Shown: piece after piece, positions 5,736 to 62,174 of the stretch
Layout: every line of letters begins with the position of its first letter
How positions within the stretch are numbered: position 1 is the first letter of the stretch
DNA from: Negativicutes bacterium
GTDB lineage: Bacteria > Bacillota > Negativicutes > JALHDB01
Assembly: GCA_022840825.1 (NCBI GenBank)
Contig: JALHDB010000001.1
Location: forward strand, 134,669-198,668
Direction of reading: 5' to 3'
Length of the DNA stretch: 64,000 bases
Program-made: the position numbers and the translations under genes
Notes under the pieces: generated by a model
The model's database searches: none
What the model saw: only the letters and a program-made list of their open reading frames with translations
Told to the model about the DNA's origin: nothing

Positions 5736-7883
5736 ATGCGAATTCGGGATATCATGAGCAAAGCCGAAGTTGTATTATTGCCGGATGTTTCCTTGCTGGA
5801 AGCTGCAAGCATGTTATATAAGGCGGGATTGGATGGTGCGGCGGTGGTGGATGAGGACCGCCGAATTATAGGAATCGTAACTAAAGCTAATTTCTTAAAA
5901 GCGATGGCCGAACAACGCCTATTGGAATCTCCGGTCGGAAGCATCATGAAAACAGGAGTGCATACTTTACAGGCCATGCTGCCAATAATAACCCTGCGCT
6001 GTGATCCTGATATCTTTTCTTATGGTTTTTATCCGGTGCTCGATGACAAACGCCAACTGTGCGGGTATATCACTAGGCCTATTTTGATGCAATATTTGTC
6101 AGACAGCATGTTTCAATTGGTAGAAGAATTAAAAGCGGTTTTAGATTCAACCTATAATGGGGTTATTGCAATAAATGCTGCCGGAAAGGTTATTTGGTAT
6201 AATGCTGCTGCCGAACGACTAATGCAGTTGCCGGCGGCAAAGGTTGTCGGTCAGCTAGTTGATGAAGTAGTGCCAAACACAGCATTACTGCGGGTAATTC
6301 AGACCGGCGAAGCCGAAGTAAATCAACAGCAGCGGATATACGACAAGGTAATTATAACTAACCGCACGCCAATCATCAAAGATGGAAAATGCATTGGAGC
6401 AGTGGGTGTATTTCAAGATATTACTGAACTTCAGTCGGTTGCCGATGAATTAGAGCATATAAAGAATCTAAAAAGCACATTGGAGTCTGTATTGGAAAGC
6501 GAATTTTCGCGGATTGTAGTTGTGGATAGATCCGGTCGCATTAGTAGAATGAATCAAGCGTATTTAGAATTCTTGGGTTATGAATCACCTAGTCAGGTAA
6601 TAGGGAAGCATGTTACTGAAATTATAGAAAATACACGGATGCATATTGTTGCCCAAACCGGCAAGGCTGAAATTATGGATGTACAGAAAATAGGGAACAG
6701 GAATTGTGTTGTAACAAGGACACCGATCATGAAAGACGGCGAAATTGTCGGAGCGGTAGGAACTGTAGATTTTAAAGATGTAAAAGAATTAAAATCCTTG
6801 GCCCGTAAAGTGAGCAAGCTACAATCTGAACTGGAATATTATAAGGAAGAATTGATCAAGGCTCACGGGGGAAAGTATACTTTTGACAGCATTATCGGTG
6901 ACAGTGAGAAAATGAAATGGCTAAAAACAACGGCTATGCGGGCAGCAAAAGGAAATTCTACCGTACTTATTTTGGGTGAAAGCGGTACTGGTAAGGAATT
7001 ATTTGCTCATGCGCTGCATAATGCCAGTTCCCGGCGGAATGGTCCGTTTATCAAAGTTAACTGTGCAGCAATTCCGGAAAATTTATTGGAATCAGAACTG
7101 TTTGGTTATGATGAAGGAGCATTCACCGGTGCCAAGCGAGGGGGAAAACCGGGTAAATTTGAATTGGCTAACGGTGGAACCATTTTTTTGGATGAAATAG
7201 GGGATATGGCCTTTCCCATGCAGGCTAAGCTTTTGCGAGTGCTGCAGGAAAAAGAAATTGAACGGGTCGGCGGAACAAAAACAATTAAAATTGATGTGCG
7301 GGTAATTGCGGCAACTAACCGTGATATTGAGGCGATGATTGAGCAAAATAATTTTCGTCAAGATTTGTATTACCGATTAAATATTATATCGTTGCAAATA
7401 CCTGCATTGAGAGAACATAAAGAAGATATTCCGCTGTTAAGTATGATGCTGCTGCGAAAAATTGCTCTTCATACTCCCCATGACGTCGAAGGAGTAGCCA
7501 AAGAAGCGGAAGAGTATCTTGTCAATTATGCTTGGCCCGGCAATGTAAGAGAACTTGAAAATGTGTTGGAACGAGCTATTAATCTTATGGATGATGAACG
7601 GTATATACTACCGGAACATCTGCCGCCTGTTATTAAACGCAGTTATCAAAATCCAGCTGTGGATAGTGGTGCACCGCCAATTCCAGCTGCCAGATCATCT
7701 GGCCGGTCCGAATTAGGAAGCATCAAGAAGGATGCCGAACGGGAGGCGTTGTGGCGGGCCCTTATTAGATCAGGCGGTAATAAAACCCGTGCGGCTAAAT
7801 TGTTAGGAATTCAGCGGTCCGCATTTTATGAAAAACTTAAGCAGCACGGTATCACCGGTAAAGAGCCTGAATTGTATCAATAG
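5736..7883 (+). CDS. Sigma-54-dependent transcriptional activator (CBS pair - PAS - PAS - AAA+ sigma-54 activation domain - Fis-type HTH)
   Basis: The RBS AGGAGG is followed by ATG at 5736. The N-terminal CBS pair is followed by Walker A GESGTGKE, the sigma-54 contact motif GAFTGA and a C-terminal HTH ([19 protein letters not shown]). Confidence 0.9.
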
Positions 7884-8237: not shown

Positions 8238-8590
8238 AATATTCGAATGCTATGAGGAGTCACGGTGAAGCAATTTTGGCTTTGCTGAGGAAAGTCCAGA
8301 CTACCACAGACTGCGATGTCTGTAGTGTGTGTGCCTATCGCAAGATAGGGCAGGTAATCCTGACGGCGGTGAATTTGACTCACGAAGTCGATAGTAGCCT
8401 GAAAGTGCCACAGAAACTATTCGGTCTGGCGACAGGCCGGTGCAAGGGTAAACCCCACACGGTAGAAACCCAAATTATGGTAGGGGAGCCTCTTTGAAGG
8501 AATGTGAACAGAGAAGGGGAATATCTTACAGATATTAGATAAATGACTCCATAAAACAAAAACTGGCTTACGGTAGCATTGAGATGTCAG
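8238..8590 (+). ncRNA. rnpB: RNase P RNA, Bacillus type B (rnpB)
   Basis: The conserved blocks GAGGAAAGUCC, GAAAGUGCCACAG, GGUAAACCCC, GAAACCCAAAUU and GGUAGGGGA are present in order. A P1 helix pairs AAUGCUA near 8246 with UAGCAUU near 8580. A TATAAT -10 lies at 8211-8216 and an intrinsic terminator follows. Ends are approximate. Confidence 0.85.
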
Positions 8591-9609: not shown

Positions 9610-9900
9610 TTGACTAATGGGATTAATTGTTATATAATCATATTCGATAATCCCATGAAGCAGATTATTAGATTATTGAATGGGTCAGAAAGTTGGCGGT
9701 TGATGCGAGCCAATCCAGGAGATCATCGAACTCACTGCCGAGGAGCAGTTGCGCAAGCAATTGACGCATAACCGGCGTTACAGGATTAAGAGGGTAATAA
9801 CATAATGTTGTTACCAATCAGGGTGGTACCGCGGGAAAACTCGTCCCTGGCATTTTGGCCAAGGGGCGATTTTACATATTACAATCATTATTTTATTGTT
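9610..9900 (+). promoter_or_regulatory. sigmaA promoter (TTGACT-17-TATAAT) plus a leucine T-box riboswitch leader controlling leuS
   Basis: -35 TTGACT at 9610-9615 and -10 TATAAT at 9633-9638. The T-box sequence AAUCAGGGUGGUACCGCGGG is at about 9816-9836. The candidate specifier is CUC (Leu) in GAACUCACUG. A terminator hairpin CCCTGGC..GCCAAGGG plus a U tract ends near 9890. Confidence 0.85.
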
Positions 9901-9930: not shown

Positions 9931-12417
9931 TTGAACGAAGAAGTAAAATACAGTCCGCATGATATTGAACGGAAATGGCAAAATGAATGGTTCGATAATA
10001 ATGTGTTTCATACTGTTATGAATCGCCAGCGTCCGGAATACTATGTGCTGGAAATGTTTCCGTATCCATCGGGTAATTTGCATATGGGTCATGTACGCAA
10101 CTATTCCATTGGCGATGTAGTGGCCAGATTTAAAACCATGCAAGGATTTAATGTGCTTCATCCGATGGGATGGGATGCATTCGGTATGCCAGCCGAAAAT
10201 GCTGCAATTAAAAATGGTATCCATCCTGCCAAATGGACGTGGGAAAACATAAAGAATATGCGCCGCCAACAAAAAGAATTGGGATTGTCCTATGATTGGG
10301 AACGGGAAGTCGCTACTTGTCATCCCGACTATTACAAATGGACGCAGTGGATGTTTTTACTGTTTTTTGAACGCGGTCTAGCTTATAAGAAAAAAGCAAC
10401 AGTAAATTGGTGTAACGATTGCAATACAGTTTTGGCTAATGAACAGGTTATCGATGGCCGTTGCTGGCGGTGTGATTCAGAGGTAGTTAAGAAGGACCTG
10501 GAACAGTGGTTTTTCAAAATTACAGATTATGCTGAAAGATTATTGCAAGACCTGGATGAGCTTAAAGGATGGCCTGATCGTGTTAAGATAATGCAGGAAA
10601 ACTGGATAGGGCGCAGCGAGGGAGCTGAATTCAGTTTTGATGTTCCGGATGTAAATGAAAAAATTCCCGTGTACACTACTCGTCAGGATACGGTATTCGG
10701 CGTTACTTATGTTGTATTGGCTCCGGAGCATCCATTAGTAGAAAAATTAATTGCCGGGAAATCTACCGCGCAACCGGTTCGTGATTTCATTGAACGAGTC
10801 AAGAAACAAAGTGAAATTAACCGAACTTCGAATGAAGCGGAAAAAGAGGGCATGTTTACCGGTGCTTACGCCGTAAATCCGTTTAATAATGAACGGGTGC
10901 CAATCTGGATCGCCAACTATGTATTATATGATTATGGTACCGGTGCGGTCATGGGTGTGCCGGCTCACGACGAACGCGACTGGCAGTTCGCAACCAAATA
11001 TCAATTAGAAAAACGGTTTGTTATCAAACCACATGATGCCAAACATGACATTCAATCCATGAATGAAGCTTATGATGGGCCGGGAATCATGATGAATTCG
11101 GGTGAATTTTCCGGCATGGATAATGAAAAGGGCAAGCAAGAAATTGTTCAGTGGCTAGAGGATAACGGTATCGGCAAGCGCCGAATCAATTATCGTTTGC
11201 GTGATTGGTTGATATCCCGTCAACGGTATTGGGGTGCTCCGATTCCGATCGTCTATTGTCCTAACTGTGGAACTGTCCCTGTTCCAGATCAGGATTTACC
11301 GGTTATGCTTCCGGAAAATGTTGATTTTGCAGCAGGCTCAGTATCTCCGCTGGCACAAGTCGAAGAGTTCGTAAATTGTACTTGTCCAAAATGCGGCGGA
11401 CAAGCACGGCGTGAAACTGATACAATGGATACGTTTATTTGTTCGTCATGGTACTATATGCGGTATACTGATCCGCGCAATGCTGATAAGGCTTTCGACA
11501 GTAATAAAGTCAACTACTGGATGCCTGTTGATCAATATATAGGCGGCATAGAACATGCTATTTTGCATTTGTTATATTCAAGGTTCTTCACTAAAGTACT
11601 GAAAGATGCAAATTTGCTCAATGTTAATGAACCGTTTAAAAATTTACTGACCCAGGGTATGGTTATTAAAGATGGCGCAAAAATGTCTAAGTCTAAAGGA
11701 AATGTTGTATCACCTGAAGAAATCGTCGGCCGTTATGGCGCTGATACTGCGCGGTTGTTTATTCTGTTCGCAGCTCCCCCGGAAAGAGACTTGGAGTGGA
11801 GTGACCAAGGTGTTGAAGGATCTTTTCGGTTTTTGGGACGGCTATGGCGTATCGTAACGCATTTTAATCAATATATTGATGGACACCTTAATGACTACGA
11901 TCCGACCGTACTCAGCAAAGAGGAAAAAGATTTAAGACGAATTTTGCATGCCACGATTAAGAAAGTCACTGACGACATTAGTCAACGATTTAATTTTAAT
12001 ACGGCAATTAGCGCAATTATGGAATTGGTAAATTATCTGTATGCATTTAAAGAATTAAACTTAGTACCGAATTCTGCGTTGATGAAAGAGGTCATAGCTG
12101 GCTTATTGCGGCTTCTTGCCCCGTTTGTGCCGCATATTACCGAAGAATTATGGAATCAGGCTATTGGTCAAGGAAGTGTACATAATCAATCATGGCCGGC
12201 TTATGACCAAGAAGCTATTAAAGTCGATGAAGTGGAAGTAGTTGTGCAAATCAATGGTAAAGTTCGTGAAAAAATAATTTTGCCGGTGGGCATTGATGCT
12301 AAAGAAATGGAACAAGCGGCTTTAGGTTTAGAAAAAGTGCAGGCATTGATTTCCGGAAAACAGATAGTAAGAGTAATTTGTGTTCCGCAAAAGATAGTGA
12401 ATATTGTTGTAAAGTAA
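9931..12417 (+). CDS. leuS: Leucine--tRNA ligase
   Basis: 828 aa with the HMGH and KMSKS (KMSKSKGN) class I signatures. It has a TTG start with RBS GGGAGGT. Confidence 0.95.
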
Positions 12418-17258: not shown

Positions 17259-17435
17259 GTGCTTCACCTCCTTATGACCATTTCACCTACAATATTCTAG
17301 CATGTGAAAAAATAAAATGCAAGGATTTCCGAAAAAAGCTCGCATTTTTGGAAACAATAACTCAAAAAAGATTCAGAATAACCAGTATGTTATTTGGGAT
17401 AAGCTAGCAATAATGAAAAATGAGGAGTGATTGCC

Positions 17436-18404
17436 GTGAATTCATGGAGTACGCCGCGCACTGATTTAGCAGTTGAAGCTAAAGAATTGTTGTCCCGTCA
17501 GGTAAAAGAAGATATTCCCGGAGTATTGACCGAAACATTGCATGATGATGACGTAGTAGTAACAAGAGTGCATATTACAACCATTCAAGCCGGACAAATG
17601 ATGGGTAAAGCACCAGGTAACTATATTACGGTAGAATGTTATGGGCTGCGTTATAAAAATACACCGCTGCAAAAAAAAGTTATGAATTTGGTAGCACAAG
17701 AATTAGTAAATTTGGCAAAGCTGCCGTTGACAGCAACTGTTCTAGTTGTCGGATTGGGGAATTGGGATGTTACTCCGGATGCCTTAGGGCCAAGGGCAGT
17801 TAGCAAAATTGTAGTAACCCGCCATTTGCAAAAGATGTTGTCACCTGAGTTGCAAGGCGGTGTCAGATCAATGTGCGCTTTGGCTCCGGGAGTTCTTGGC
17901 AATACCGGCATGGAAACAGCCGAGATTATTAAGGGAGTAGTGACGGCAATTGGGCCTGATTTGGTAATAGCGGTTGATGCTTTGGCGGCGGCAACCAGTC
18001 ACCGTATGAATACGACGGTGCAATTGGCTAATTCAGGTATTCATCCGGGATCAGGAGTTGGAAATAAACGATTTGGTTTAACACAGGATTATCTGGGAGT
18101 CCCGGTTATTGCCATAGGTGTTCCTACGGTGGTGCATGCCTCAACTATTGCCATGGACACATTGGATACGTTACAAGATCATGCTGCCTTTTCACGTTAT
18201 TTTAAAAGTATGCAAAACCTTTCCGAACATGATCAGCGTACGATTGTGAGGCAGGTATTACCTGATACATTGGGTGATCTGATGGTAACGCCCAAAGAAA
18301 TAGACCGGCTGATCAATGATATGGCTGATATAGTTGCCGGTGGAATCAATCAAGCGATGCACCCCAATATCGATTACAAAAATATTCATAACTACTTGCA
18401 TTAG
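17436..18404 (+). CDS. gpr: Germination protease (spore endopeptidase)
   Basis: Full-length GPR homologue. A GTG start lies 8 nt after RBS GAGGAG. Confidence 0.85.
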   Translation: MNSWSTPRTDLAVEAKELLSRQVKEDIPGVLTETLHDDDVVVTRVHITTIQAGQMMGKAPGNYITVECYGLRYKNTPLQKKVMNLVAQELVNLAKLPLTATVLVVGLGNWDVTPDALGPRAVSKIVVTRHLQKMLSPELQGGVRSMCALAPGVLGNTGMETAEIIKGVVTAIGPDLVIAVDALAAATSHRMNTTVQLANSGIHPGSGVGNKRFGLTQDYLGVPVIAIGVPTVVHASTIAMDTLDTLQDHAAFSRYFKSMQNLSEHDQRTIVRQVLPDTLGDLMVTPKEIDRLINDMADIVAGGINQAMHPNIDYKNIHNYLH

Positions 18405-18498
18405 AAATACTTGTCCTGCTGTATTCGTCAAACAGTACTAGGTTTTTACTGCTAAGCATATACATCGTATGTAAACAGATGTATGGGAGGCAGTAACC

Positions 18499-19497
18499 GT
18501 GAAATTGCCTAATTGGCTAAAACCGCTATTGTTTGTGGTTCCGTTTTTTGTATTTATAATCTGTGCAAGCCATACGGCAGCTATGGATAAATCTCTAATG
18601 CCTTCGATTGCTATCAAATGGAGTAATGTCCTATTTTTAGGCATACCCGGATTAGAGCAAACGAAACAAGATCCTGCTAAAAGTGAGACTTTTACTTTTA
18701 GCAGGATGAAAATACTTCGCAATATGATTTTATCGATTACCGATATTGATATTGGCAACTTAAAAACGCTGATGAGTATTGAGATAGCGGGGCTGTCAAG
18801 TACTTCGCCCGGGAAAAAGACCGTAACAGTTACGTCAGTACCAAATAAGGCTAATTTTACGATAAGAAAAATGAATTTGAGTGGTAAACCGATCGTCGGC
18901 ATTTATCATACTCATACTTCAGAGTCGTTCGTTCCTTCATCCGGTTACTCCCACCGGCGGGGGGGAAATACCGGCGATATTGTGACGGTTGGTGAGGCCG
19001 CTGTACAAAGATTTGCTACAAACGGCATTGTTGCTGTTCAGAGTAAAGCGATTCATGACTATCCGTCATTTATGAAAGCATATAGTGCATCAGAAGCTAC
19101 GATCAAAAAAATGCTGCAGGATCACTCGGCTCTGGAAATGATTTTTGACATCCACCGTGATGCGGATAAGCGGGAGAACATTACGGCGATGGTTGATAAT
19201 CAGGAAACCGCTAAAATTCTCATTGTTGTTGCGCAGGGGCAACCGGATTTACCGCAGCCTCATTGGGAAGAAAATTATGCATTTGCTCAACTGATTGATA
19301 AAAAGTTACAGCAACATTATCCGGGTGTTTCGCGGGGGATTCAATTAGTTGATTGGCGCTATAATCAGCATTTGCATCGCCGGGCGTTGCTAATTGAGGT
19401 CGGCAGTCAGGAGTCGACCACTGAAGAAGCTATTCGCAGCATTGAAATGTTTGCTGATGTTGTTTCGGAAATAATCGCAGAAGGCAGTGAATTTTAA
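18499..19497 (+). CDS. spoIIP: Stage II sporulation protein P
   Basis: The position after gpr matches B. subtilis. It has an N-terminal membrane anchor and the SpoIIP amidase-like domain. Confidence 0.85.
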   Translation: MKLPNWLKPLLFVVPFFVFIICASHTAAMDKSLMPSIAIKWSNVLFLGIPGLEQTKQDPAKSETFTFSRMKILRNMILSITDIDIGNLKTLMSIEIAGLSSTSPGKKTVTVTSVPNKANFTIRKMNLSGKPIVGIYHTHTSESFVPSSGYSHRRGGNTGDIVTVGEAAVQRFATNGIVAVQSKAIHDYPSFMKAYSASEATIKKMLQDHSALEMIFDIHRDADKRENITAMVDNQETAKILIVVAQGQPDLPQPHWEENYAFAQLIDKKLQQHYPGVSRGIQLVDWRYNQHLHRRALLIEVGSQESTTEEAIRSIEMFADVVSEIIAEGSEF

Positions 19498-23007: not shown

Positions 23008-23025
23008 CTTATTATCTTGACAGCA

Positions 23026-23083
23026 AGGCAAATGAGTGGTATTTTTTTATTAGATGTTAGCACTCTAGTTAATAGAGTGCTAA
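23026..23083 (+). promoter_or_regulatory. sigmaA promoter (TTGACA-17-TATTTT) with a perfect CIRCE operator TTAGCACTC-N9-GAGTGCTAA at 23057-23083
   Basis: A perfect 9-N9-9 inverted repeat matching the CIRCE consensus sits just downstream of the -10 and upstream of hrcA. Confidence 0.9.
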
Positions 23084-23108
23084 CAACAGACAGCAGGAGG
23101 TGGAAAAT

Positions 23109-24137
23109 ATGTTAGATGAAAGAAAAAGGAAAATTCTGCAAGCTATCATTGATGATTATATTTCCACCGCGGAACCGATTGGGTCTCGCACGATTGCCAG
23201 AAAGTATAATTTAGGTATTAGTCCTGCTACAATTCGTAACGAAATGTCTGATTTGGAAATGCTTGGGTATTTGGAGCAACCACATACCTCAGCCGGTCGA
23301 ATTCCATCGGCGAGAGGGTATAGATTTTATGTCGATTGCCTATTGTCACCGGCAAAACTATCCGAAAATGATATTGCTTTAATTGAAAGTTGGTATAAGA
23401 CGAAAGTTCGGCGTATTGACGAAGTATTTCAGGAAACGGCTAAGATTTTATCCAGAGTAACTCGTAATGTATCGATCGTTTCTGCGCCACAAATGCGTCA
23501 ATGTACTTTTCGCTATATACAGTTTTTGCCGTTAGATGAAGAAAGAGTTATTGTTGTGCTGGTTTCGGACACCGGTCTAATTGAAAATAAAGTTATTAAA
23601 ATTCCGCAGGAGATCAGCTTAGAAGATTTACAGAAAATTGCTCATCGTATAAATTTGCGGTTAACAGGAATGTCCTTTGATTCTATTAAAAGCTCGCTGC
23701 TGCATGAGATAAAACGAGAGATACTCCAACAGGAAAACTTATTTGAAGCTGCGATGGAATTATTACGCGAAGCCTTAGCGATCAATTCGACTGAAAAAGT
23801 ATATCTTGGTGGTACCACTCAACTATTGGAACAACCGGAATTTAGGGATGTTGACAAGGTAAAGAGTCTGCTGGGAGTATTAGAAGAAGAAAGAGTACTA
23901 TGTGATATTCTCCAGCGCCAGAATAATCAAGGTGTATTGGTTACCATCGGTCAGGAAAATAAATTTAGCGTTATCAAAGATTGCAGTATGGTTCAAGCGA
24001 CTTATCATATCGACGGTCAGATAGTCGGTACTATTGCCGTACTGGGACCTACCAGGATGGAATACGGAAAAGTAATGGCCGTAATCGAGTTTATGAATCA
24101 ACACCTTAGTCAATTATTAAATAAGTATAAAGTGTAG
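23109..24137 (+). CDS. hrcA: Heat-inducible transcription repressor HrcA
   Basis: RBS AGGAGG then ATG. The N-terminal winged helix reads [26 protein letters not shown]. Confidence 0.92.
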
Positions 24138-24159
24138 GGTATTTGGAGGGAATAAGATT

Positions 24160-25743
24160 ATGAGTCTTAAGCAAGCCGGCAGCGGCTCTGAAGTGGATGA
24201 GAGATTGGCTGCGCTACTTACTAATGCCAATGCGGTTAGAGCGATTACTTCTGCCGTTGAAGGAACAATCGGCCCTAAAGGCCTGGATACGATGCTTGTC
24301 GACCGGTTTGGCGAAGTTATTATCACTAACGACGGTGTTACAATTTTAGACAAAATGGATGTAAATCATCCCGCTGCGAAGATGTTAATCAATATTGCTA
24401 AGGCCCAGCAAGCAGAGGTCGGCGATGGTACAACTACAGCAACAATTATGGCCGGGAGTCTGGTAGGAGAAGGCGTAAATCAAGTAATCCGCGGTGTGCC
24501 GGTGGCTAAAGTAATTGAAGGTATAAAACACGGTATTGCTTTAGCACTTGAAGAAGTAAAAAAACACGCCCGCCAAATAGACAATATTGACGATTCGATA
24601 TTACGTAACATTGCTATGATTGCCGGTCGCGAGTATCAGGATATTGCCGATTTAGTGGTAAAGGCTGCGCAGTTAATAGGAATGGAAAAGTTGCTTGAAC
24701 CAAACTTTAAATTGTCCGATATTATAACTGCTGAAGAGGGCGCAGATAACGAAGTATTTATGGGCGTAATAATTGACCAAGAACGAATGAGTAAGGAAAT
24801 GCCGCAATCGATAACAAATGCCAAAATATTAATAATCGATGATGCTCTGGAACCGGAAGAACTCGGCGATGAAGCATTAGGTACCGAGATCGGTTTCAAA
24901 CGCTATATAGAGTTTCAAGATGAGTTTAAGGCTAACTTACATAAGATTGTAGATTTAGGCGTAAATGTAGTACTCGTTGATCGTGGCGTAGATTCCAGCG
25001 CCGAAGAGATTTTTACCGATGCCGGAATTTTAGTTGTTCAGCGTGTTTCTGCTAAAGACCTGAGGCGTGCAGCAGAGCATACCGGAGCCAGAATGATGAA
25101 ACGTACCGGACTAAAAAAAACGCCTGAAGAAATTGTTAGGTATATAGGGCAGGCTGCCCAAGTGTATGAGGATGAAAAGTTGGAACAAGTTAGGACTATT
25201 GGTGGTTTAGGCAAACCAATGGCGACAATTCTAGTTGGTGCTGCAACTGAAGAAGTAGTGGGTGAACGTGAAAGAATAGCCAAAGATGCTGCTTCCAGTG
25301 TTCAGGCTGCGGTCAAGGGTGGCTTTGTTCCCGGCGGCGGTTCGATAGAAATTGCAGTTGCCCGCCATGTACAAAAGTGCCGGGATAGTGTAAAGGGTAT
25401 GGCCGGTTATGGAGTAGAATGTGTGGTTAATGCTTTGAAACGCCCGCTGGCTCAGATTGTAGAAAATGCAGGATACAATCATTTGGAAAAAGTCGAGCAG
25501 ATTATTTCGGCACAAGCCGAGCAATCGCTTGATTCCTTAGGGATTGATTGCGATTCGGGTGAAGTCAAAGATATGCTGGATATTGGTGTGGTTGATCCGG
25601 TAAATGTGAAGGTTCATGCCATTAGGGCAGCAGGAGAAGTTGCTGTTGCAATCTTGCGTATCGATACTATTATTAAGAAAAAAGAACAAAATGCAAATAC
25701 CAAGGCTGGTGATGCCGAAAGTACTGGCTTACCAGACTTCTAA
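24160..25743 (+). CDS. Group II (thermosome/CCT-type) chaperonin, bacterial archaeal-like chaperonin
   Basis: 527 aa with the thermosome-type N-terminal equatorial motifs [26 protein letters not shown] and [14 protein letters not shown]. There is no GroEL-type N-terminus and no groES partner. The gene sits between hrcA and grpE. Confidence 0.85.
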
Positions 25744-25762: not shown

Positions 25763-26347
25763 TTGGAAGATGTAAAACAGACTACCGATGAAACAACTCT
25801 TGATGACACAGTAAATAACTGCGAACCGGAAATTGATGAAAACTCTGCGGTGTCCGCCCAAGAGGCTGCCGGTGAACAAGATAAAGAAACTGTGCAAGCA
25901 ATATTGGCTGAGCAGCAAAAGTTAGCAGATGATTTATCTAATCGGTTGATAAGATTGCAAGCTGATTTTGAAAATTTCCGGCGCAGGTCCCGCCAGGAAA
26001 AATCAGAAATGTCTACGCTGGTGACTGCCGATGTAGTTAAACAATTATTACCGGTTATCGATAATTTTGAGCGGGCGTTAAATAGTGCTGCTACGCAAGA
26101 CGTGCAGGCATTGCGCTCAGGAATTGAAATGATTTATCGGCAATTAATAAATAACTTAGAGAAGATCGGTGTGCAAACAATTCTTGCACTGGATATGCCG
26201 TTTAATCCTGAACAACATGAAGCAGTTATGCGAGCCCATGATGACAGTAAAGCTGAAGGCACTATTATCGAAGAATTACAAAAGGGATACTCGATCAACG
26301 GTAAAGTAATTCGTCCCAGTATGGTGAAAGTCGTCGCTAACTCATAA
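25763..26347 (+). CDS. grpE: Nucleotide exchange factor GrpE
   Basis: It has the characteristic coiled-coil region (LQADFENFRRRSRQE) and the C-terminal beta domain. Confidence 0.92.
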   Translation: MEDVKQTTDETTLDDTVNNCEPEIDENSAVSAQEAAGEQDKETVQAILAEQQKLADDLSNRLIRLQADFENFRRRSRQEKSEMSTLVTADVVKQLLPVIDNFERALNSAATQDVQALRSGIEMIYRQLINNLEKIGVQTILALDMPFNPEQHEAVMRAHDDSKAEGTIIEELQKGYSINGKVIRPSMVKVVANS

Positions 26348-26424: not shown

Positions 26425-28269
26425 ATGGCTAAAGTAATTGGTATAGACCTTGGTACTACCAATTCAGTTGTATCAGTAATGGAAGGTGGAGAGCCGGTAG
26501 TTATTGCAAATGCTGAGGGCAGCAGGTTAACACCTTCGGTGGTAGGTTTTTCGAAAACGGGTGAAAGATTAGTGGGGCAGCTGGCCAAACGTCAGGCCGT
26601 ATCTAATCCTGATCGGACAATTAGCTCAATCAAGCGGCATATGGGTACTGACTATAAGGTCAAAATTGATGATAAAGATTATACTCCCCAACAAATTTCC
26701 GCGATGATTTTACAAAAATTAAAACAAGATGCGGAAAATTACTTAGGAGAAAAAATTTCGCAAGCTGTTATTACTGTGCCGGCATATTTTACCGATAGTC
26801 AACGGCAAGCGACAAAAGATGCCGGTGTTATTGCCGGATTGGAAGTACTTAGAATAATTAATGAACCGACGGCAGCTGCGCTGGCTTACGGCCTAGACAA
26901 AGGTGATGACCATACTATCCTGGTTTTTGACCTCGGCGGCGGAACTTTTGATGTTTCGATTTTAGAATTGGGTGAAGGTGTTTTTGAGGTAAAAGCAACT
27001 CACGGCAATAACCGTTTAGGCGGCGATGATTTCGATGAGCGTGTTATGAATTGGCTGGTTGCCGAATTTAAGCGCGAAACCGGTATTGATCTTTCCAAAG
27101 ACCGGATGGCTATGCAACGGCTGATAGAGGCCAGTGAAAAAGCGAAGATCGAATTATCGGGTGTGTTAACAACGAATATAAACTTACCGTTTATTACAGC
27201 TGATGCTTCCGGACCGAAGCACTTGGATATTAATCTATCCCGGGCCAAATTTGACGAGTTGACTGCCGACCTGGTAGAGGCAACCATGGGACCAACCCGT
27301 CAGGCAATGAAAGATGCCGGATTATCGCCAAAAGATATTGCGAAGGTAATTTTAGTTGGAGGATCTTCCCGTATTCCGGCCGTACAAGAAGCGATTAAAA
27401 AGTTTTTAGGAAAAGAACCACACCGCGGAGTAAATCCTGATGAGTGTGTGGCCGTTGGTGCGGCAATTCAAGCCGGTGTACTGGTGGGTGAAGTTAAAGA
27501 TGTATTGTTGTTAGATGTTACTCCGCTGTCTTTGGGTATTGAAACTTTAGGTGGAGTATTTACTAAGATTATAGATAGGAATACCACTATTCCTACCGAC
27601 AAGAGTCAAGTATTCTCGACTGCAGCTGATAACCAACCGTCGGTAGATATTCATGTTCTGCAAGGTGAACGGGATATGGCTGCTTATAATAAAACTTTAG
27701 GCCGTTTTGAATTAGCGGGTATTCCGCCGGCTCCGCGCGGAGTTCCGAAAATTGAAGTTAAGTTCAGTATTGATGCCAACGGTATTGTGCATGTTACGGC
27801 CAAAGATCTGGGTACCGGCAAAGAACAAGCCATCACTATTACTTCTTCCAGTGGTTTAAGCAAAGATGATATCGATAAGATGGTCAAAGAAGCTGAGTCT
27901 CATGCCGCTGAGGATAAAAAGCGTAAAGAAGAAGTGGAAGCACGTAATAGCGCGGACTCATTGATTTATCAAGCAGAAAAGACCATTAAGGATATGGGTG
28001 ATAAAGCCGATAAAAACTTAGTGGAAAAAGTCCAAAAAGCAGTTGAAAAACTTAAAGATACTTTAAAGGGAAATGACATCGAAAAAATTAAAGCTGATAC
28101 CGAGGAATTGACTAAACCTTTATATGAGCTTTCGGCTGAGATGTATAAACAGGCCCAAGAACAAGGAGCTCCGGGACAACAAGCAGGTAGTGCCGGTAGT
28201 TCCAAGCAGGAAGCCAATAAAGATGAAACCATAGTTGATGCTGAAGTTGTGGATGACGATAAGAAATAA
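26425..28269 (+). CDS. dnaK: Chaperone DnaK (Hsp70)
   Basis: The [18 protein letters not shown] and [11 protein letters not shown] signatures are present. Confidence 0.97.
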
Positions 28270-28286: not shown

Positions 28287-29429
28287 TTGGTGAGTAAAAA
28301 GGATTACTATGAAATTTTAGGTGTGCCAAAAACAGCGTCTGATGATGAGATTAAAAAGGCGTTTCGGAAATTGGCCCGGAAATACCATCCTGATGTTAAC
28401 CGTGATGACCCTAAGGCCGAGGAGAAATTTAAAGAAGTCAATGAAGCTTATGAGATATTATCTGATGCTCAACGCCGGGCGCAGTATGACCAATTCGGTC
28501 ATGCTGCGTTTGAAGGCGCTCAAGGTGGCGCAGGAGGTTTCGGAGGCTTTGGCGAAGGCGGTATTAATGATATATTCGATATGTTCTTTGGGGGTGGTCA
28601 CTCCGGGTTTGGTTTTGGCTCTCGCCAGCCTGGACCGGAAAAAGGTGCCGATTTACGTTACGACCTGACTATTACTTTTGAACAAGCTGCTTTCGGACTA
28701 GAAACGGAAATAGAATTGCCTCGTACGGAACAATGCCCGGCTTGTCATGGATCAGGGGCGGCACCGGGAACTCATCCGGAAACTTGTCCGGAATGTCATG
28801 GTACCGGCCAAGTACAGTATACGCAAAATACTCCATTTGGCCGGATGATGAATGTTAGGGCTTGTGATCGATGCAAAGGAGAAGGAAAAATAGTTCATAC
28901 TCCTTGTAAAGAGTGTTCAGGACGCGGTAAAGTGCGCAACCGCCGCAAGATCAAAGTTAAGATTCCGGCCGGTGTCGATAATGGGTCGCGCTTACGGGTG
29001 CCCCGGGAAGGCGAAGCCGGATTGCGAGGCGGTCCGCAGGGAGATTTATATGTGTATATTTTCGTTAAACCACATAAACTATTTACACGATCAGGTAACG
29101 ATGTTATATGTGAGGTGCCTATCAGCATAGTTCAAGCGACTATTGGCGATGAAATTGAAGTGCCGACACTTGAGGGAAAGGTTAAACTACGGATTCCAGA
29201 GGGGACTCAACCGGGCACAATTTTCCGTTTGCGTGAGAAAGGTATTCCTTCCCTGCGTGGAACCAGCAAGGGAGATCAACACGTTAAAGTTAAGGTTGTG
29301 ATTCCTAAAAAACTCACTGAAAAACAAAAGGAATTGCTTATTGCTTTTGCTCAGACCGGAGGCGAAAATATCAATCCGGAAGAAAAGAGTTTTTTTAAAA
29401 AAGTTAAAAATGCCTTGGGAGGACTATGA
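28287..29429 (+). CDS. dnaJ: Chaperone DnaJ (Hsp40)
   Basis: The J domain carries HPD. A G/F-rich region and four CxxCxGxG zinc-finger repeats follow. Confidence 0.95.
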
Positions 29430-29460: not shown

Positions 29461-30399
29461 ATGAAGTGGGCCGAAATTACTGTCCAGACTAGCCATGAGG
29501 CCACCGAGGCGGTGGCTAATATTTTTCATGAACTAGGCGCCAGCGGAGTGGTCATTGAAGACCCGGAACTAATTAATTCCTATCGCCGGTCCGGAACATG
29601 GGAATATTGTGACATACCCGAAGAGGAAGATACTCAGACTGTAACTGTAACAGCGTATCTTCCGGTAAACGAAGAATTGAATCAAAAATTGCATATTTTT
29701 GAACAACGGATCAATGATTTGACAACGCATAACTTAGATAAGGGCAGTGGTAAGATTCAATTACGGGAAATTGCTGAAGAAGACTGGTCCTCTTCATGGA
29801 AACAATTTTTCCATCCGCTGAAAATTGGTGAGCGGGTCGTAATTAAACCTTCCTGGGAGAACTATCAGCAATTAAATGATGAGGTTGTAGTTGAATTGGA
29901 CCCGGGTATGGCTTTTGGAACAGGCAATCACCATACAACCAGTATGTGCATAGGAATTTTGGAAGACGTTATTCAGACGGGCCATGTCGTGTTTGATATT
30001 GGTACTGGTTCAGGAATATTAGCAATTGTGTGTGCAAAACTAGGAGCTAGCAGTGTGCAGGCAGTTGATATCGATTCTGTTGCCGTACAGGTTGCTGCTG
30101 ACAATATCCTAAAGAATAAAGTTGAAGATATAGTGAGCATTAAGCGCGGGGATTTGTTATCCGGAGTGACAGGCAAAGCAGATGTTATAATTGCTAATAT
30201 AATTGCTGATGTGATTGTTGAACTGATAACTGATGTTAGCAATAAATTAAATGAACACGGTCTTTTAATCGCCAGCGGGATTATATCCGATCGACTGACG
30301 GATGTTTCAACCGTAATTATGGACCACGGATTGACAATTGAAAAGGTTATCGAGCAAGGTGGCTGGGTGGCAATGGTGGTAAGTAAGGGAGGAGAATGA
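29461..30399 (+). CDS. prmA: Ribosomal protein L11 methyltransferase
   Basis: The SAM motif DIGTGSGILAI is present. The position after dnaJ matches Bacillus. Confidence 0.9.
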   Translation: MKWAEITVQTSHEATEAVANIFHELGASGVVIEDPELINSYRRSGTWEYCDIPEEEDTQTVTVTAYLPVNEELNQKLHIFEQRINDLTTHNLDKGSGKIQLREIAEEDWSSSWKQFFHPLKIGERVVIKPSWENYQQLNDEVVVELDPGMAFGTGNHHTTSMCIGILEDVIQTGHVVFDIGTGSGILAIVCAKLGASSVQAVDIDSVAVQVAADNILKNKVEDIVSIKRGDLLSGVTGKADVIIANIIADVIVELITDVSNKLNEHGLLIASGIISDRLTDVSTVIMDHGLTIEKVIEQGGWVAMVVSKGGE

Positions 30400-38477: not shown

Positions 38478-39659
38478 ATGCTAATGCTCAATATCATAAA
38501 CTTTATAACTGGTATTGTAAAGATTCGCATAAGCGGTTTATTTCCAGAAAAATTTATTAATTTATGTATTGCCCAAAATATACTGCTGTGGAAAATTATT
38601 GAAACACAGGAATGTTTTTATGCTTACATCCGGCTGACAGATTTTTTGCAAATTCGTCCGTTGGTGCTGCGCAGCAGGGTTCGTATTAAAGTAATGGAAT
38701 ATTACGGCTTGCCGTTTATTAAAAAGAGACTTAAAAAAAGGAAAGTACTGGTAATTGGTGCGATAATTTCAGTTGTAGTGTTAAATGTATTATCTTCTTT
38801 TGTATGGTTTGTGGATGTGCAAGGGAACAAGCTTGTTTCAGATTTAGATATCAAGCAGATCGCGCAAAATAATGGTTTGAAAGTCGGTATAGCAAAATCA
38901 ACAATAACTGTTAAAAATATAGAGAATGCTATTCTTTATCACCTTCCCACAGTCGCTTGGACCAGTGTGAGTATTAATGGAACACGGGCCTTAATTGAGG
39001 TAGTGGAAAAGACTTTGCCGCCACCTCTTGAAAGCAGTCCGGCTGACCTAGTTGCAGTTAAAGATGGAGAAATAACTGAAATTGTCCTTATTTACGGCGA
39101 GCCGGTTGTAAAAGTTGGCGATAGAGTCAGCAAAGGCGATCTTTTAATCAGGCATTCGCTAGTATTAGCGGAAGCGTCAAAAAGTATAAGGGCAAAAGGT
39201 ATAATAAACGCAAAGGTAAGATATGAAGCATTAGGTGAGGCTAAGACCAAAGAAGAACAATATTTGCGAACAGGTCAAAGAAAAGTTGCGGTTGCCGTAG
39301 ATTTTAATAATCAAAAGTTATGGTTAAAAAAAGCTGATGTTAGTCAATATTCATTTTTTGAAAAGGAACAAATATGTAAAAGCTTTTCGAAGTGGAGGAA
39401 AGGAGGTTTTCCTGTCGAATTACATATTGATGTTTATCATGAATTAGAAAAAAAATGGTCACTGCAATCTTATGATCAAGCTGTTGAGAAGGCAAAGATA
39501 CAGGCGCTATCCCAAATTCAAAATATTATTCCGTTAAATGCCCAAATCTTAAAACGGGAAATTGAAGTTATGTCGGATGAAGACAATATGAATGTCAACG
39601 TAAAGGCGATAATTGAAACGATAGAAGATATTGGTCAGGATTTAGTTATTGAACAATAA
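38478..39659 (+). CDS. yqfD: Sporulation protein YqfD (stage IV)
   Basis: 393 aa with the N-terminal motif VKIRISGLFPEKFINLC, a TM segment, and its position after yqfC. Confidence 0.88.
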   Translation: MLMLNIINFITGIVKIRISGLFPEKFINLCIAQNILLWKIIETQECFYAYIRLTDFLQIRPLVLRSRVRIKVMEYYGLPFIKKRLKKRKVLVIGAIISVVVLNVLSSFVWFVDVQGNKLVSDLDIKQIAQNNGLKVGIAKSTITVKNIENAILYHLPTVAWTSVSINGTRALIEVVEKTLPPPLESSPADLVAVKDGEITEIVLIYGEPVVKVGDRVSKGDLLIRHSLVLAEASKSIRAKGIINAKVRYEALGEAKTKEEQYLRTGQRKVAVAVDFNNQKLWLKKADVSQYSFFEKEQICKSFSKWRKGGFPVELHIDVYHELEKKWSLQSYDQAVEKAKIQALSQIQNIIPLNAQILKREIEVMSDEDNMNVNVKAIIETIEDIGQDLVIEQ

Positions 39660-60337: not shown

Positions 60338-60381
60338 CCGAATTGAGATTATTGATATTGTTGATGGAAGGAGGGAGTACG

Positions 60382-61950
60382 ATGACGGAGAAAAAACAAT
60401 TACCTACTGAGCAGGTTAACGAATTATTGCATAAGGGCAGAAAACGTGGCGGCGTATTGACATATTCAGAAATCATGGACAGTATGCAAGGCGAAGATTT
60501 GTCGCCGGATGACATGGATGATATGTACGAAATTTTTATTAATAAAGGAATTGAAATTGTTGATGAACTTCCGGAAAATGAAACCATAGATGTTCCGGGA
60601 TTAGAACTTGACGGGAATACGGAAGAAGTCGATATTGATCTTTCTATCCCGGAAGGGATCAACATAGATGATCCTGTTCGTATGTATCTGAAAGAAATCG
60701 GTCGAGTACCCCTGCTAACAGGTGAAGACGAAATTAAATTGGCTAAGCGCATGGATAAGGGTAATCAAGCTACCGAGTTTATTGATAAGATGATGGGTAT
60801 TGATAATTCTTCTAATAGTACCGACAGCGAGATAAATGAAATTTTAGCCAATATTAAAGCGGATATAAGTGAAGAAGAAACCTTTATGTTAAGGCGCGAT
60901 GCACATACGATTTTATTTCAATTAGTGCAATTAGCTAATCAGGGTAACGGCAAATTAAAGTTTGGCGTTGTGCAATCGGCTTGTGATGAATTAACACAGG
61001 ATGAATTAAAATATATTACTCGTGGACTAGGAATGAAAGGAATTGAAATTACTCCTGACGGTATTGATAATAAAGAAGGCCTATCAGCACCGGAAATTAA
61101 TAAATTAGAAGCAATTTTTAATTATTTTGACGGTATCGGCAATGTAACCGATTCTAGTTTGATTAATGAATACTCAGCCCTTAAAGGCCAGTATATAAAG
61201 CTTTTGCATAAGTTAGTTGAACAAGGTGAGACTTCGAAGCGCAGCCTATCTGAAGCTAATTTACGGCTAGTTGTAAGTATAGCTAAGCGCTATGTAGGAC
61301 GGGGAATGTTATTTCTGGATTTAATTCAGGAAGGCAATTTAGGCCTGATAAAAGCCGTAGAAAAATTTGACTATAACAAAGGATATAAATTCAGCACCTA
61401 TGCAACTTGGTGGATTCGACAAGCAATTACCAGAGCAATTGCCGATCAAGCCAGAACAATTCGTATACCTGTTCATATGGTCGAGACAATCAATAAATTG
61501 ATTCGAGTTTCGCGCCAATTATTGCAAGAATTGGGCCGAGAACCCTCGCCGGAAGAAATTGCCCGTGAAATGGATATAACTGTAGACCGGGTACGCGAGA
61601 TTATGAAAATTGCTCAAGAACCGGTTTCTCTAGAAACACCAATTGGTGAAGAAGAAGATTCTCATTTGGGTGATTTTATTGAAGATCAAGATGCACCGGC
61701 ACCTGCTGAAGCCGCATCGTTTATTTTGCTCAAAGAGCAGTTGGAAGAAGTGCTGGAAACATTGACAGCCAGAGAGAAGAAAGTGCTTCAACTTCGCTTT
61801 GGTTTGGAAGACGGCAGGGCTCGTACTTTGGAAGAGGTCGGTCAGCATTTTGGCGTAACCCGGGAAAGAATACGTCAAATTGAAGCGAAAGCATTACGTA
61901 AACTCAGGCACCCAAGCAGGAGCAAAAAGCTTAAAGATTTTCTTGAGTAA
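60382..61950 (+). CDS. sigA: RNA polymerase sigma factor SigA (RpoD)
   Basis: RBS GGAGGAGGGAG then ATG. Regions 2.4 through 4.2 are present ([27 protein letters not shown]; [30 protein letters not shown]). Confidence 0.95.
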
Positions 61951-62017: not shown

Positions 62018-62092
62018 TCCTCGATAGCTCAATGGTAGAGCACTCGGCTGTTAACCGAGTGGTTGTAGGTTCGAGTCCTACTCGAGGAGCCA
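62018..62092 (+). tRNA. tRNA-Asn (anticodon GUU)
   Basis: The cloverleaf was folded by hand. The acceptor stem is TCCTCGA/TCGAGGA and the anticodon loop is CTGTTAA. T-arm GGTTCGAGTCC and an encoded CCA are present. Confidence 0.85.
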
Positions 62093-62099
62093 AATATTT

Positions 62100-62174
62100 G
62101 GGCCTATAGCTCAGCGGTAGAGCAGCCGGCTCATAACCGGCTGGTCCCTGGTTCGATCCCAGGTGGGCCCACCA
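62100..62174 (+). tRNA. tRNA with CAU anticodon (elongator tRNA-Met, or lysidine-modified tRNA-Ile2)
   Basis: The cloverleaf was folded by hand. The anticodon loop is CTCATAA, a G1-C72 pair is present (so it is not an initiator), and CCA is encoded. Confidence 0.8.

Follow-up and report, generated by a model that had tools for sequence, protein, structure and literature searches.

A Group III chaperonin gene in the hrcA-dnaK operon of a Negativicutes bacterium

Group III chaperonins are the thermosome-like chaperonins of bacteria. They have been described since 2010, together with the place of their genes in the dnaK operon and the control of these genes by the repressor HrcA, and crystal structures (2017) and a resurrected ancestor (2025) have followed. 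With a single exception, the gene is situated within the dnaK operon (An et al. 2017; review), 195 species with a Group III chaperonin were counted in 2017 (An et al. 2017), and all hosts also have GroEL/ES (review). Here, we describe a stretch of 64,000 nucleotides (nt) from a Negativicutes bacterium (assembly GCA_022840825.1, contig JALHDB010000001.1; hereafter, the window), in which a gene for a chaperonin of 527 amino acids (aa) lies between hrcA and grpE. We consider, with a probability of about 0.9, that it is an intact Group III chaperonin gene (cpn) in the 5' half of a Firmicute class-I heat-shock operon of the order P(sigA)-CIRCE-hrcA-cpn-grpE-dnaK-dnaJ, CIRCE being the inverted repeat through which chaperone expression is controlled. 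The gene is of a known kind, and its position and HrcA/CIRCE control are already described; as a discovery it carries little weight and is an ordinary new instance of a described system.

The described protein to which it is mainly compared is the Group III chaperonin of Carboxydothermus hydrogenoformans (Ch-CPN; PDB 5X9U/5X9V; Techtmann & Robb 2010; An et al. 2017). Ch-CPN assembles into lidded 16-mers that form a double octameric ring and close on adenosine triphosphate (ATP) without GroES, and its ATPase is non-cooperative (An et al. 2017); it also shields Escherichia coli from lethal heat shock (review). The features given for Group III are a clade of its own, a gene within the dnaK operon, a built-in lid shorter than that of Group II with L237, F243, Y246 and F253, a missing nucleotide-sensing loop together with R155, which in Ch-CPN contacts the gamma-phosphate, and the catalytic D373 (An et al. 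2017). The protein of Thermosinus carboxydivorans is the extant sequence closest to the published Group III ancestor ACIII (ACIII paper). Group II comprises the archaeal thermosome and the eukaryotic CCT, and its members partner with prefoldin (An et al. 2017).

Assignment of the chaperonin to Group III

The chaperonin gene is the open reading frame (ORF) at 24160-25743 on the plus strand, flanked by hrcA on its 5' side and grpE on its 3' side. An earlier note on this DNA had described a thermosome/CCT-like chaperonin of 527 aa in this place, and the ORF and all four motifs that it quoted are present. Pfam Cpn60_TCP1 matches the protein from end to end with 373 bits. Among the NCBIfam models, those of thermosomes (TIGR02339, NF041082 and NF041083) rank first with 315-319 bits, but every one of them stays under its cut-off (318.7 vs 400, 315.5 vs 671.1 and 314.8 vs 450). 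The GroEL model TIGR02348 reaches 156 bits against a cut-off of 582, and the best GroEL model 187 against 352, with the match split over two stretches. The comparison of thermosome with GroEL profiles that the earlier note had proposed therefore comes out on the thermosome side (315-319 bits against at most 187).

A sequence search of PDB points more narrowly to Group III. The best match is 9rwq (ACIII) with 667 bits, followed by the Ch-CPN entries 5x9u and 5x9v with 468 bits and by archaeal thermosomes with about 250 bits. The PDB molecule name of 9rwq reads 'Ancestral Group II Chaperonin (ACII)', and the data-availability section of the paper assigns 9RWQ to ACIII; the sequence itself, given its 667 bits to the query, fits Group III, and the label is misleading for automated annotation.

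For a comparison residue by residue, the query was aligned with E. coli GroEL, with four named Negativicute homologues close to it and with 113 full-length representatives that an exhaustive search among 1.84 billion proteins had yielded. In a pairwise alignment, the query and Ch-CPN match with hardly a gap over 518 residues, at 46% identity, and R157, D376, L240, F246, Y249 and F256 of the query, all present, correspond to R155, D373, L237, F243, Y246 and F253 of Ch-CPN. The segment of the nucleotide-sensing loop (query residues 148-166) has 19 residues and the lid segment 37, as against mostly 25 and mostly 41 in the Group II representatives. A loop segment of 19 residues is shared by the query and 44 representatives, and these also have the 37-residue lid except for two, in which the lid is shorter. 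Pairwise alignments to thermosomes give the same picture, with six additional thermosome residues in the loop and four in the lid, and the lysine of the Group II loop is replaced by an arginine in a different register.

These positions are strongly conserved among 120 close homologues. The position aligned to R157 is arginine in 120/120, as are D376, D89-T93 (GDGTTT) and G392-G394 (GGG) invariant in all of them, and L240, F246, Y249 and F256 are kept in 116-120 of the 120.

Some proteins from the representative search stand apart. P0147 (1057 aa) and P0182 (1047 aa) are of double length and match the query in two stretches each; each looks like a tandem fusion of chaperonin subunits within a single polypeptide. 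In a divergent set (P0161-P0203; 475-511 aa, 28-33% identity), both the loop and the lid are short and the Arg/Asp pair is present, but the residues at the tip of the lid differ. The gene of one of them, P0164 (L075, 5001-6536), lies outside a dnaK operon and adjoins ATPase_2 and aconitase genes. An et al. (2017) mention archaeal relatives of a non-canonical kind, and this set may correspond to them.

An AlphaFold monomer model built from a 40-sequence alignment (predicted local distance difference test score 90.6; predicted template modelling score 0.84) contains a helix at residues 243-265 in the lid region. Its best fit in PDB is 5x9v (template modelling (TM) scores 0.88/0.94; root-mean-square deviation (rmsd) 2.1 Å), followed by 5x9u; the two Group III structures together span TM 0.87-0.94 and rmsd 2.1-2.6 Å. 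All Group II chains rank after them, at an rmsd of about 3.5 Å.

In a simple neighbour-joining tree of 500 columns with E. coli GroEL as the root, monophyly is obtained both for the short-loop set and for the Group II set, and a clade free of Group II members that unites the query with the Ch-CPN-like representative is recovered in 92 of 100 bootstraps. By its lid, loop, catalytic residues, clade and operon, the protein belongs to Group III.

The protein thus resembles Ch-CPN in its short loop, short lid, catalytic Arg/Asp pair, four lid hydrophobics and dnaK-operon location, and Ch-CPN is also its best structural match, so that the earlier note was right to see another instance of the Carboxydothermus type. 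Unlike the host of Ch-CPN, a thermophilic member of the Clostridia, the host here is a spore-forming Negativicute represented only by a metagenome-assembled genome; the C-terminal tail is slightly longer than that of Ch-CPN, and the protein is known from sequence. The Group III proteins of other Negativicutes (Thermosinus carboxydivorans, Sporomusa, Anaerospora, Lucifera and Pelosinus) are closer still, with 71-79% identity, the same synteny and the same promoter architecture; the nearest is 79% identical, and they differ by species-level sequence divergence only. With the thermosome and CCT, the protein shares the three-domain fold, the built-in helical lid, independence from GroES and the ATP-binding motifs (TM 0.8-0.85). 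It is set apart from them by an identity of only about 27-34%, by the six extra residues of the Group II loop with its gamma-phosphate lysine and the four of the Group II lid, and by gene location, Group II genes lying outside the dnaK operon. In the strict sense, the term 'archaeal-type Group II' used in the earlier note does not hold, as the thermosome cut-offs are missed and the indels and residues of Group III are present.

The distinction is of practical use. The Negativicute relatives are annotated as 'TCP-1/cpn60 chaperonin family protein', and annotations in general ('TCP-1/cpn60 family', 'GroEL', 'thermosome alpha subunit') still fail to separate Group III from Group II. Simple markers do separate them, namely the indels of 6 residues in the loop and 4 in the lid, R157, and the L/F/Y/F residues of the lid.

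Promoter, CIRCE and operon layout

The features of the operon are as follows, with positions counted from the first letter of the window.

23017..23045, plus strand: sigma-A-type promoter (TTGACA at 23017-23022, 17-nt spacer, TG-extended -10 TATTTT)
23057..23083, plus strand: CIRCE operator, HrcA binding site as predicted by sequence (perfect TTAGCACTC-N9-GAGTGCTAA)
23109..24137, plus strand: hrcA, heat-inducible transcriptional repressor, 342 aa (TIGR00331; Pfam HrcA and HrcA_DNA-bdg)
24160..25743, plus strand: cpn, 527 aa, subunit of a bacterial thermosome-like (Group III) chaperonin (Cpn60_TCP1; ribosome-binding site GGAGGG upstream)
25763..26347, plus strand: grpE, nucleotide exchange factor (Pfam GrpE, 160 bits; NCBIfam NF010738, 168 bits, cut-off 137)
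26425..28269, plus strand: dnaK (Hsp70; Pfam HSP70, 847 bits)
28287..29429, plus strand: dnaJ (Hsp40; Pfam DnaJ, DnaJ_CXXCXGXG and DnaJ_C)

The promoter obtained the top score in a scan of the region for promoter-like sites (10/12, plus the TG). The sigma-A promoter that the earlier note had proposed is thus near consensus and the best in the region, but its -35 hexamer starts 9 nt before the point at which that note had its region begin. CIRCE begins 12 nt past the end of the -10 and is, as had been claimed, perfect; tolerating up to 3 mismatches brought out no second match in the window, and none was found in 100 shuffles.

Both elements recur in related loci. A perfect CIRCE occupies the equivalent place in 66 of the 69 related loci with upstream DNA. 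Among 68 sequences, comprising the window and related loci with a perfect CIRCE and enough upstream DNA, TTGACA lies at most 50 nt upstream of CIRCE in 66, with a TGgTATTTT -10 at the same spacing. The -35, the extended -10 and the arms of CIRCE are kept, while the promoter spacer and the CIRCE loop vary, a pattern that on sequence grounds is a clear regulatory footprint. The locus has the make-up of an HrcA/CIRCE regulon, with CIRCE between the promoter and the first gene and with hrcA itself present. A review citing Techtmann & Robb (2010) names HrcA as the regulator of the 'Type III' gene located in the dnaK operon, and we infer from the elements found here that HrcA controls this chaperonin operon as well.

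The repressor passes the equivalog threshold of TIGR00331 (352 bits vs cut-off 197). Its start is likely the ATG at 23109, which has AGGAGG 10 nt upstream and yields the 342 aa of the source records; an alternative in-frame GTG lies at 23100. The gaps between the operon genes are 22, 19, 77, 17 and 31 nt, with grpE beginning 19 nt past the stop codon of the chaperonin gene, and these gaps leave no space for a groES. The embedding of the gene in an HrcA/CIRCE dnaK operon, asserted in the earlier note, is confirmed by the profile scores of hrcA, grpE, dnaK and dnaJ, and its statement that a GroES partner is lacking nearby also stands, no groES adjoining the chaperonin gene. More widely, neither groES nor groEL occurs among the scanned ORFs of at least 150 aa in the window; the sole other chaperonin-sized ORF (60343-61950, 535 aa) is SigA.

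A crude consensus scan, in which the total count of candidates equals the shuffle expectation, revealed no convincing terminator inside the operon. Together with gene gaps of 17-77 nt, this suggests a single messenger RNA (mRNA) from hrcA to dnaJ. One terminator candidate, at 29499-29517, was discarded on account of its position within prmA. A search with Rfam gave no RNA element, an RNA thermometer for instance, either in the leader of the operon or in its intergenic gaps.

The arrangement is like that of Bacillus subtilis in its promoter-CIRCE-hrcA start, in the order grpE-dnaK-dnaJ and in the flanks lepA-hemW and prmA-rsmE-mtaB, and unlike it in the chaperonin gene inserted between hrcA and grpE. 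For the Bacillus subtilis side of this comparison, we rely on established knowledge of its hrcA-grpE-dnaK-dnaJ operon.

Distribution, history and alternative explanations

Using close peptide patterns alone, relatives at 62-78% identity were found in 70 species-representative genomes (GTDB representatives; best 78%). These belong mostly to the Sporomusaceae and other Negativicutes, followed by Clostridia (Tepidanaerobacteraceae, Thermoanaerobacterales and Desulfitobacteriaceae), and many metagenomic clusters also carry homologues. The species of the window is not among these representatives; a protein identical to the query is present in assembly GCA_022838805.1 and in the Logan runs SRR18493543 and SRR18493546. 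The 'few Firmicutes' to which the earlier note had confined such genes are therefore an understatement, considering also the 195 species counted in 2017.

The order lepA-hemW-CIRCE-hrcA-cpn-grpE-dnaK-dnaJ-prmA is found in about 66 of the 70 related Bacillota loci, and even a relative of 42% identity precedes grpE-dnaK-dnaJ-prmA. The adjacency of hrcA and cpn is kept in all 69 related loci with upstream DNA. Four loci from high-GC Bacillota (L031, L040, L066 and L070, the last from Symbiobacterium sp.) have CIRCE-hrcA-cpn-dnaJ without grpE-dnaK between cpn and dnaJ. The chaperonin occupies 3218-4810 in L066 and about 6001-7590 in the other three. Judging by these four loci, cpn is linked more constantly to hrcA than to dnaK, the linkage stressed in the literature.

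Composition and divergence agree in showing the gene to be at home in its operon. The GC content at third codon positions (GC3) of the chaperonin gene is 0.362, and its neighbours span 0.34-0.40. Genome by genome, identity to the query rises and falls for the chaperonin much as it does for LepA, HrcA, DnaK, DnaJ and PrmA (Spearman rho 0.74-0.87; 52-65 genomes). The lack of a compositional anomaly and the co-divergence with neighbours lead us to reject a recent horizontal transfer and argue for an old, vertically inherited resident of the Bacillota operon. The origin of the clade is debated in the literature, with an ancient transfer from archaea and an ancestral relic as the two hypotheses (An et al. 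2017; ACIII paper; further literature). The horizontal acquisition from archaea presumed in the earlier note is one of these two, while for a recent event there is no sign in GC3 or in the correlations. The promoter-CIRCE-hrcA-cpn module in 70 genomes, the co-divergence and the composition speak for long residence and vertical inheritance in Bacillota, which bears on the debate without settling it.

It is very improbable, then, that the gene is a true archaeal Group II thermosome lately transferred from an archaeon, which by chance landed in the dnaK operon. Such an import would account for the thermosome models being the best NCBIfam matches and for the built-in lid fold. It is opposed by the wide margin by which every thermosome cut-off is missed, by the absence of the Group II nucleotide-sensing-loop extension and of the 4 extra lid residues, and by an identity of about 30-34% to archaeal thermosomes as against 46% to Ch-CPN and 79% to other Negativicutes. 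GC and GC3 that match those of the neighbours, a divergence that tracks theirs across 52-65 genomes and an identical insertion site in 70 genomes also disagree with it.

We give no more credence to the idea of a relic, in decay or without function, that is passively carried in the operon. In its favour, one may cite the statement in a review that the role of these chaperonins beside GroEL is uncharacterised; direct evidence of decay there is none. The ORF is intact and of full length and has a good ribosome-binding site, GDGTTT, GGG, R157, D376 and the lid hydrophobics are invariant or nearly so in the 120 homologues, and an identity of 70-79% across Negativicutes indicates strong purifying conservation. 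Least credible of all is a divergent Group I GroEL paralogue using a GroES encoded elsewhere, for although GroEL models match in part (at most 187 bits over two stretches) and extra groEL copies without an adjacent groES are common in bacteria (review), thermosome/CCT models score higher in one end-to-end match, identity to E. coli GroEL is a mere 26% and that protein lacks a lid segment (17 vs 37 residues in the lid window), and every structural neighbour shown belongs to Group III or Group II.

The preferred reading, an intact Group III gene in a single HrcA-type heat-shock operon, has some results weighing against it. In the tree, monophyly of the whole short-loop set is recovered in only 29 of 100 bootstraps, or 58 of 100 when four long branches are left out; this weakness is attributed to a few very divergent members, and we therefore rely on the narrower clade with the Ch-CPN-like representative and on the indel and residue markers. 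As to the operon, a sigma-70-like site scoring 10/12 (ATGACA-16-TATTAT) lies at 26241-26268, in the 3' end of grpE and some 160 nt ahead of dnaK. It may serve dnaK as a secondary promoter or may have arisen by chance, given that such sites in the region are as frequent as in shuffled sequence. The crudeness of the terminator scan likewise leaves room for internal processing or secondary promoters.

Proposed working of the operon and neighbouring genes

The following mechanism is proposed from the operon layout and from homology to Ch-CPN. Under non-stress conditions, HrcA would bind to CIRCE just past the -10 and repress its own operon. When unfolded proteins build up, HrcA would become inactive, and hrcA-cpn-grpE-dnaK-dnaJ would be transcribed as one mRNA. 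The chaperonin subunits would assemble into a 2 x 8 double ring, as suggested by the 46% identity to Ch-CPN, and the cavity would be shut by the built-in helical lid (residues ~226-266) rather than by GroES. ATP binding would drive the closure, with Arg157 at the gamma-phosphate and Asp376 in hydrolysis and with no nucleotide-sensing loop taking part. Made together with DnaK, DnaJ and GrpE, the chaperonin would presumably refold stress-denatured proteins beside them and beside the GroEL/ES of the cell. For this organism, we infer regulation by HrcA, co-transcription, the oligomeric state and foldase activity alike from these comparisons.

A further step can be imagined, which we regard as doubtful: the Group III chaperonin might, instead of or besides GroEL, keep HrcA in its DNA-binding form. 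The hint comes from the linkage of hrcA and cpn, the most constant in the operon and kept in the four loci without an intervening grpE-dnaK. If true, a self-contained feedback loop would reside in one operon, with the repressor and its activating chaperonin made from adjacent cistrons. Published speculation stresses a partnership with DnaK instead (An et al. 2017; review), and the adjacency of hrcA and cpn may be no more than the legacy of one insertion point in an ancestor.

The remainder of the window is a standard Firmicute core region, carrying leuS, comEC, holA, gpr, spoIIP, lepA, hemW, the heat-shock operon, prmA, rsmE, mtaB, yqfD, glyS, ppdK, dnaG and sigA. The sporulation genes gpr (germination protease) and spoIIP, at 17427-19497, and yqfD, at 38478-39659, point to a spore-forming, Sporomusaceae-like Negativicute as the host, which fits the nearest relatives of the chaperonin. 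Several RNA genes and elements are also found in the window. A bacterial class B RNase P RNA lies at 8248-8575 (209 bits) and a T-box leader at 9646-9851 (129 bits), the T-box being directly 5' of leuS (9931-12417). Transfer RNA genes for Asn (GTT) and Met (CAT) at 62018-62174 follow immediately 3' of sigA (60343-61950).

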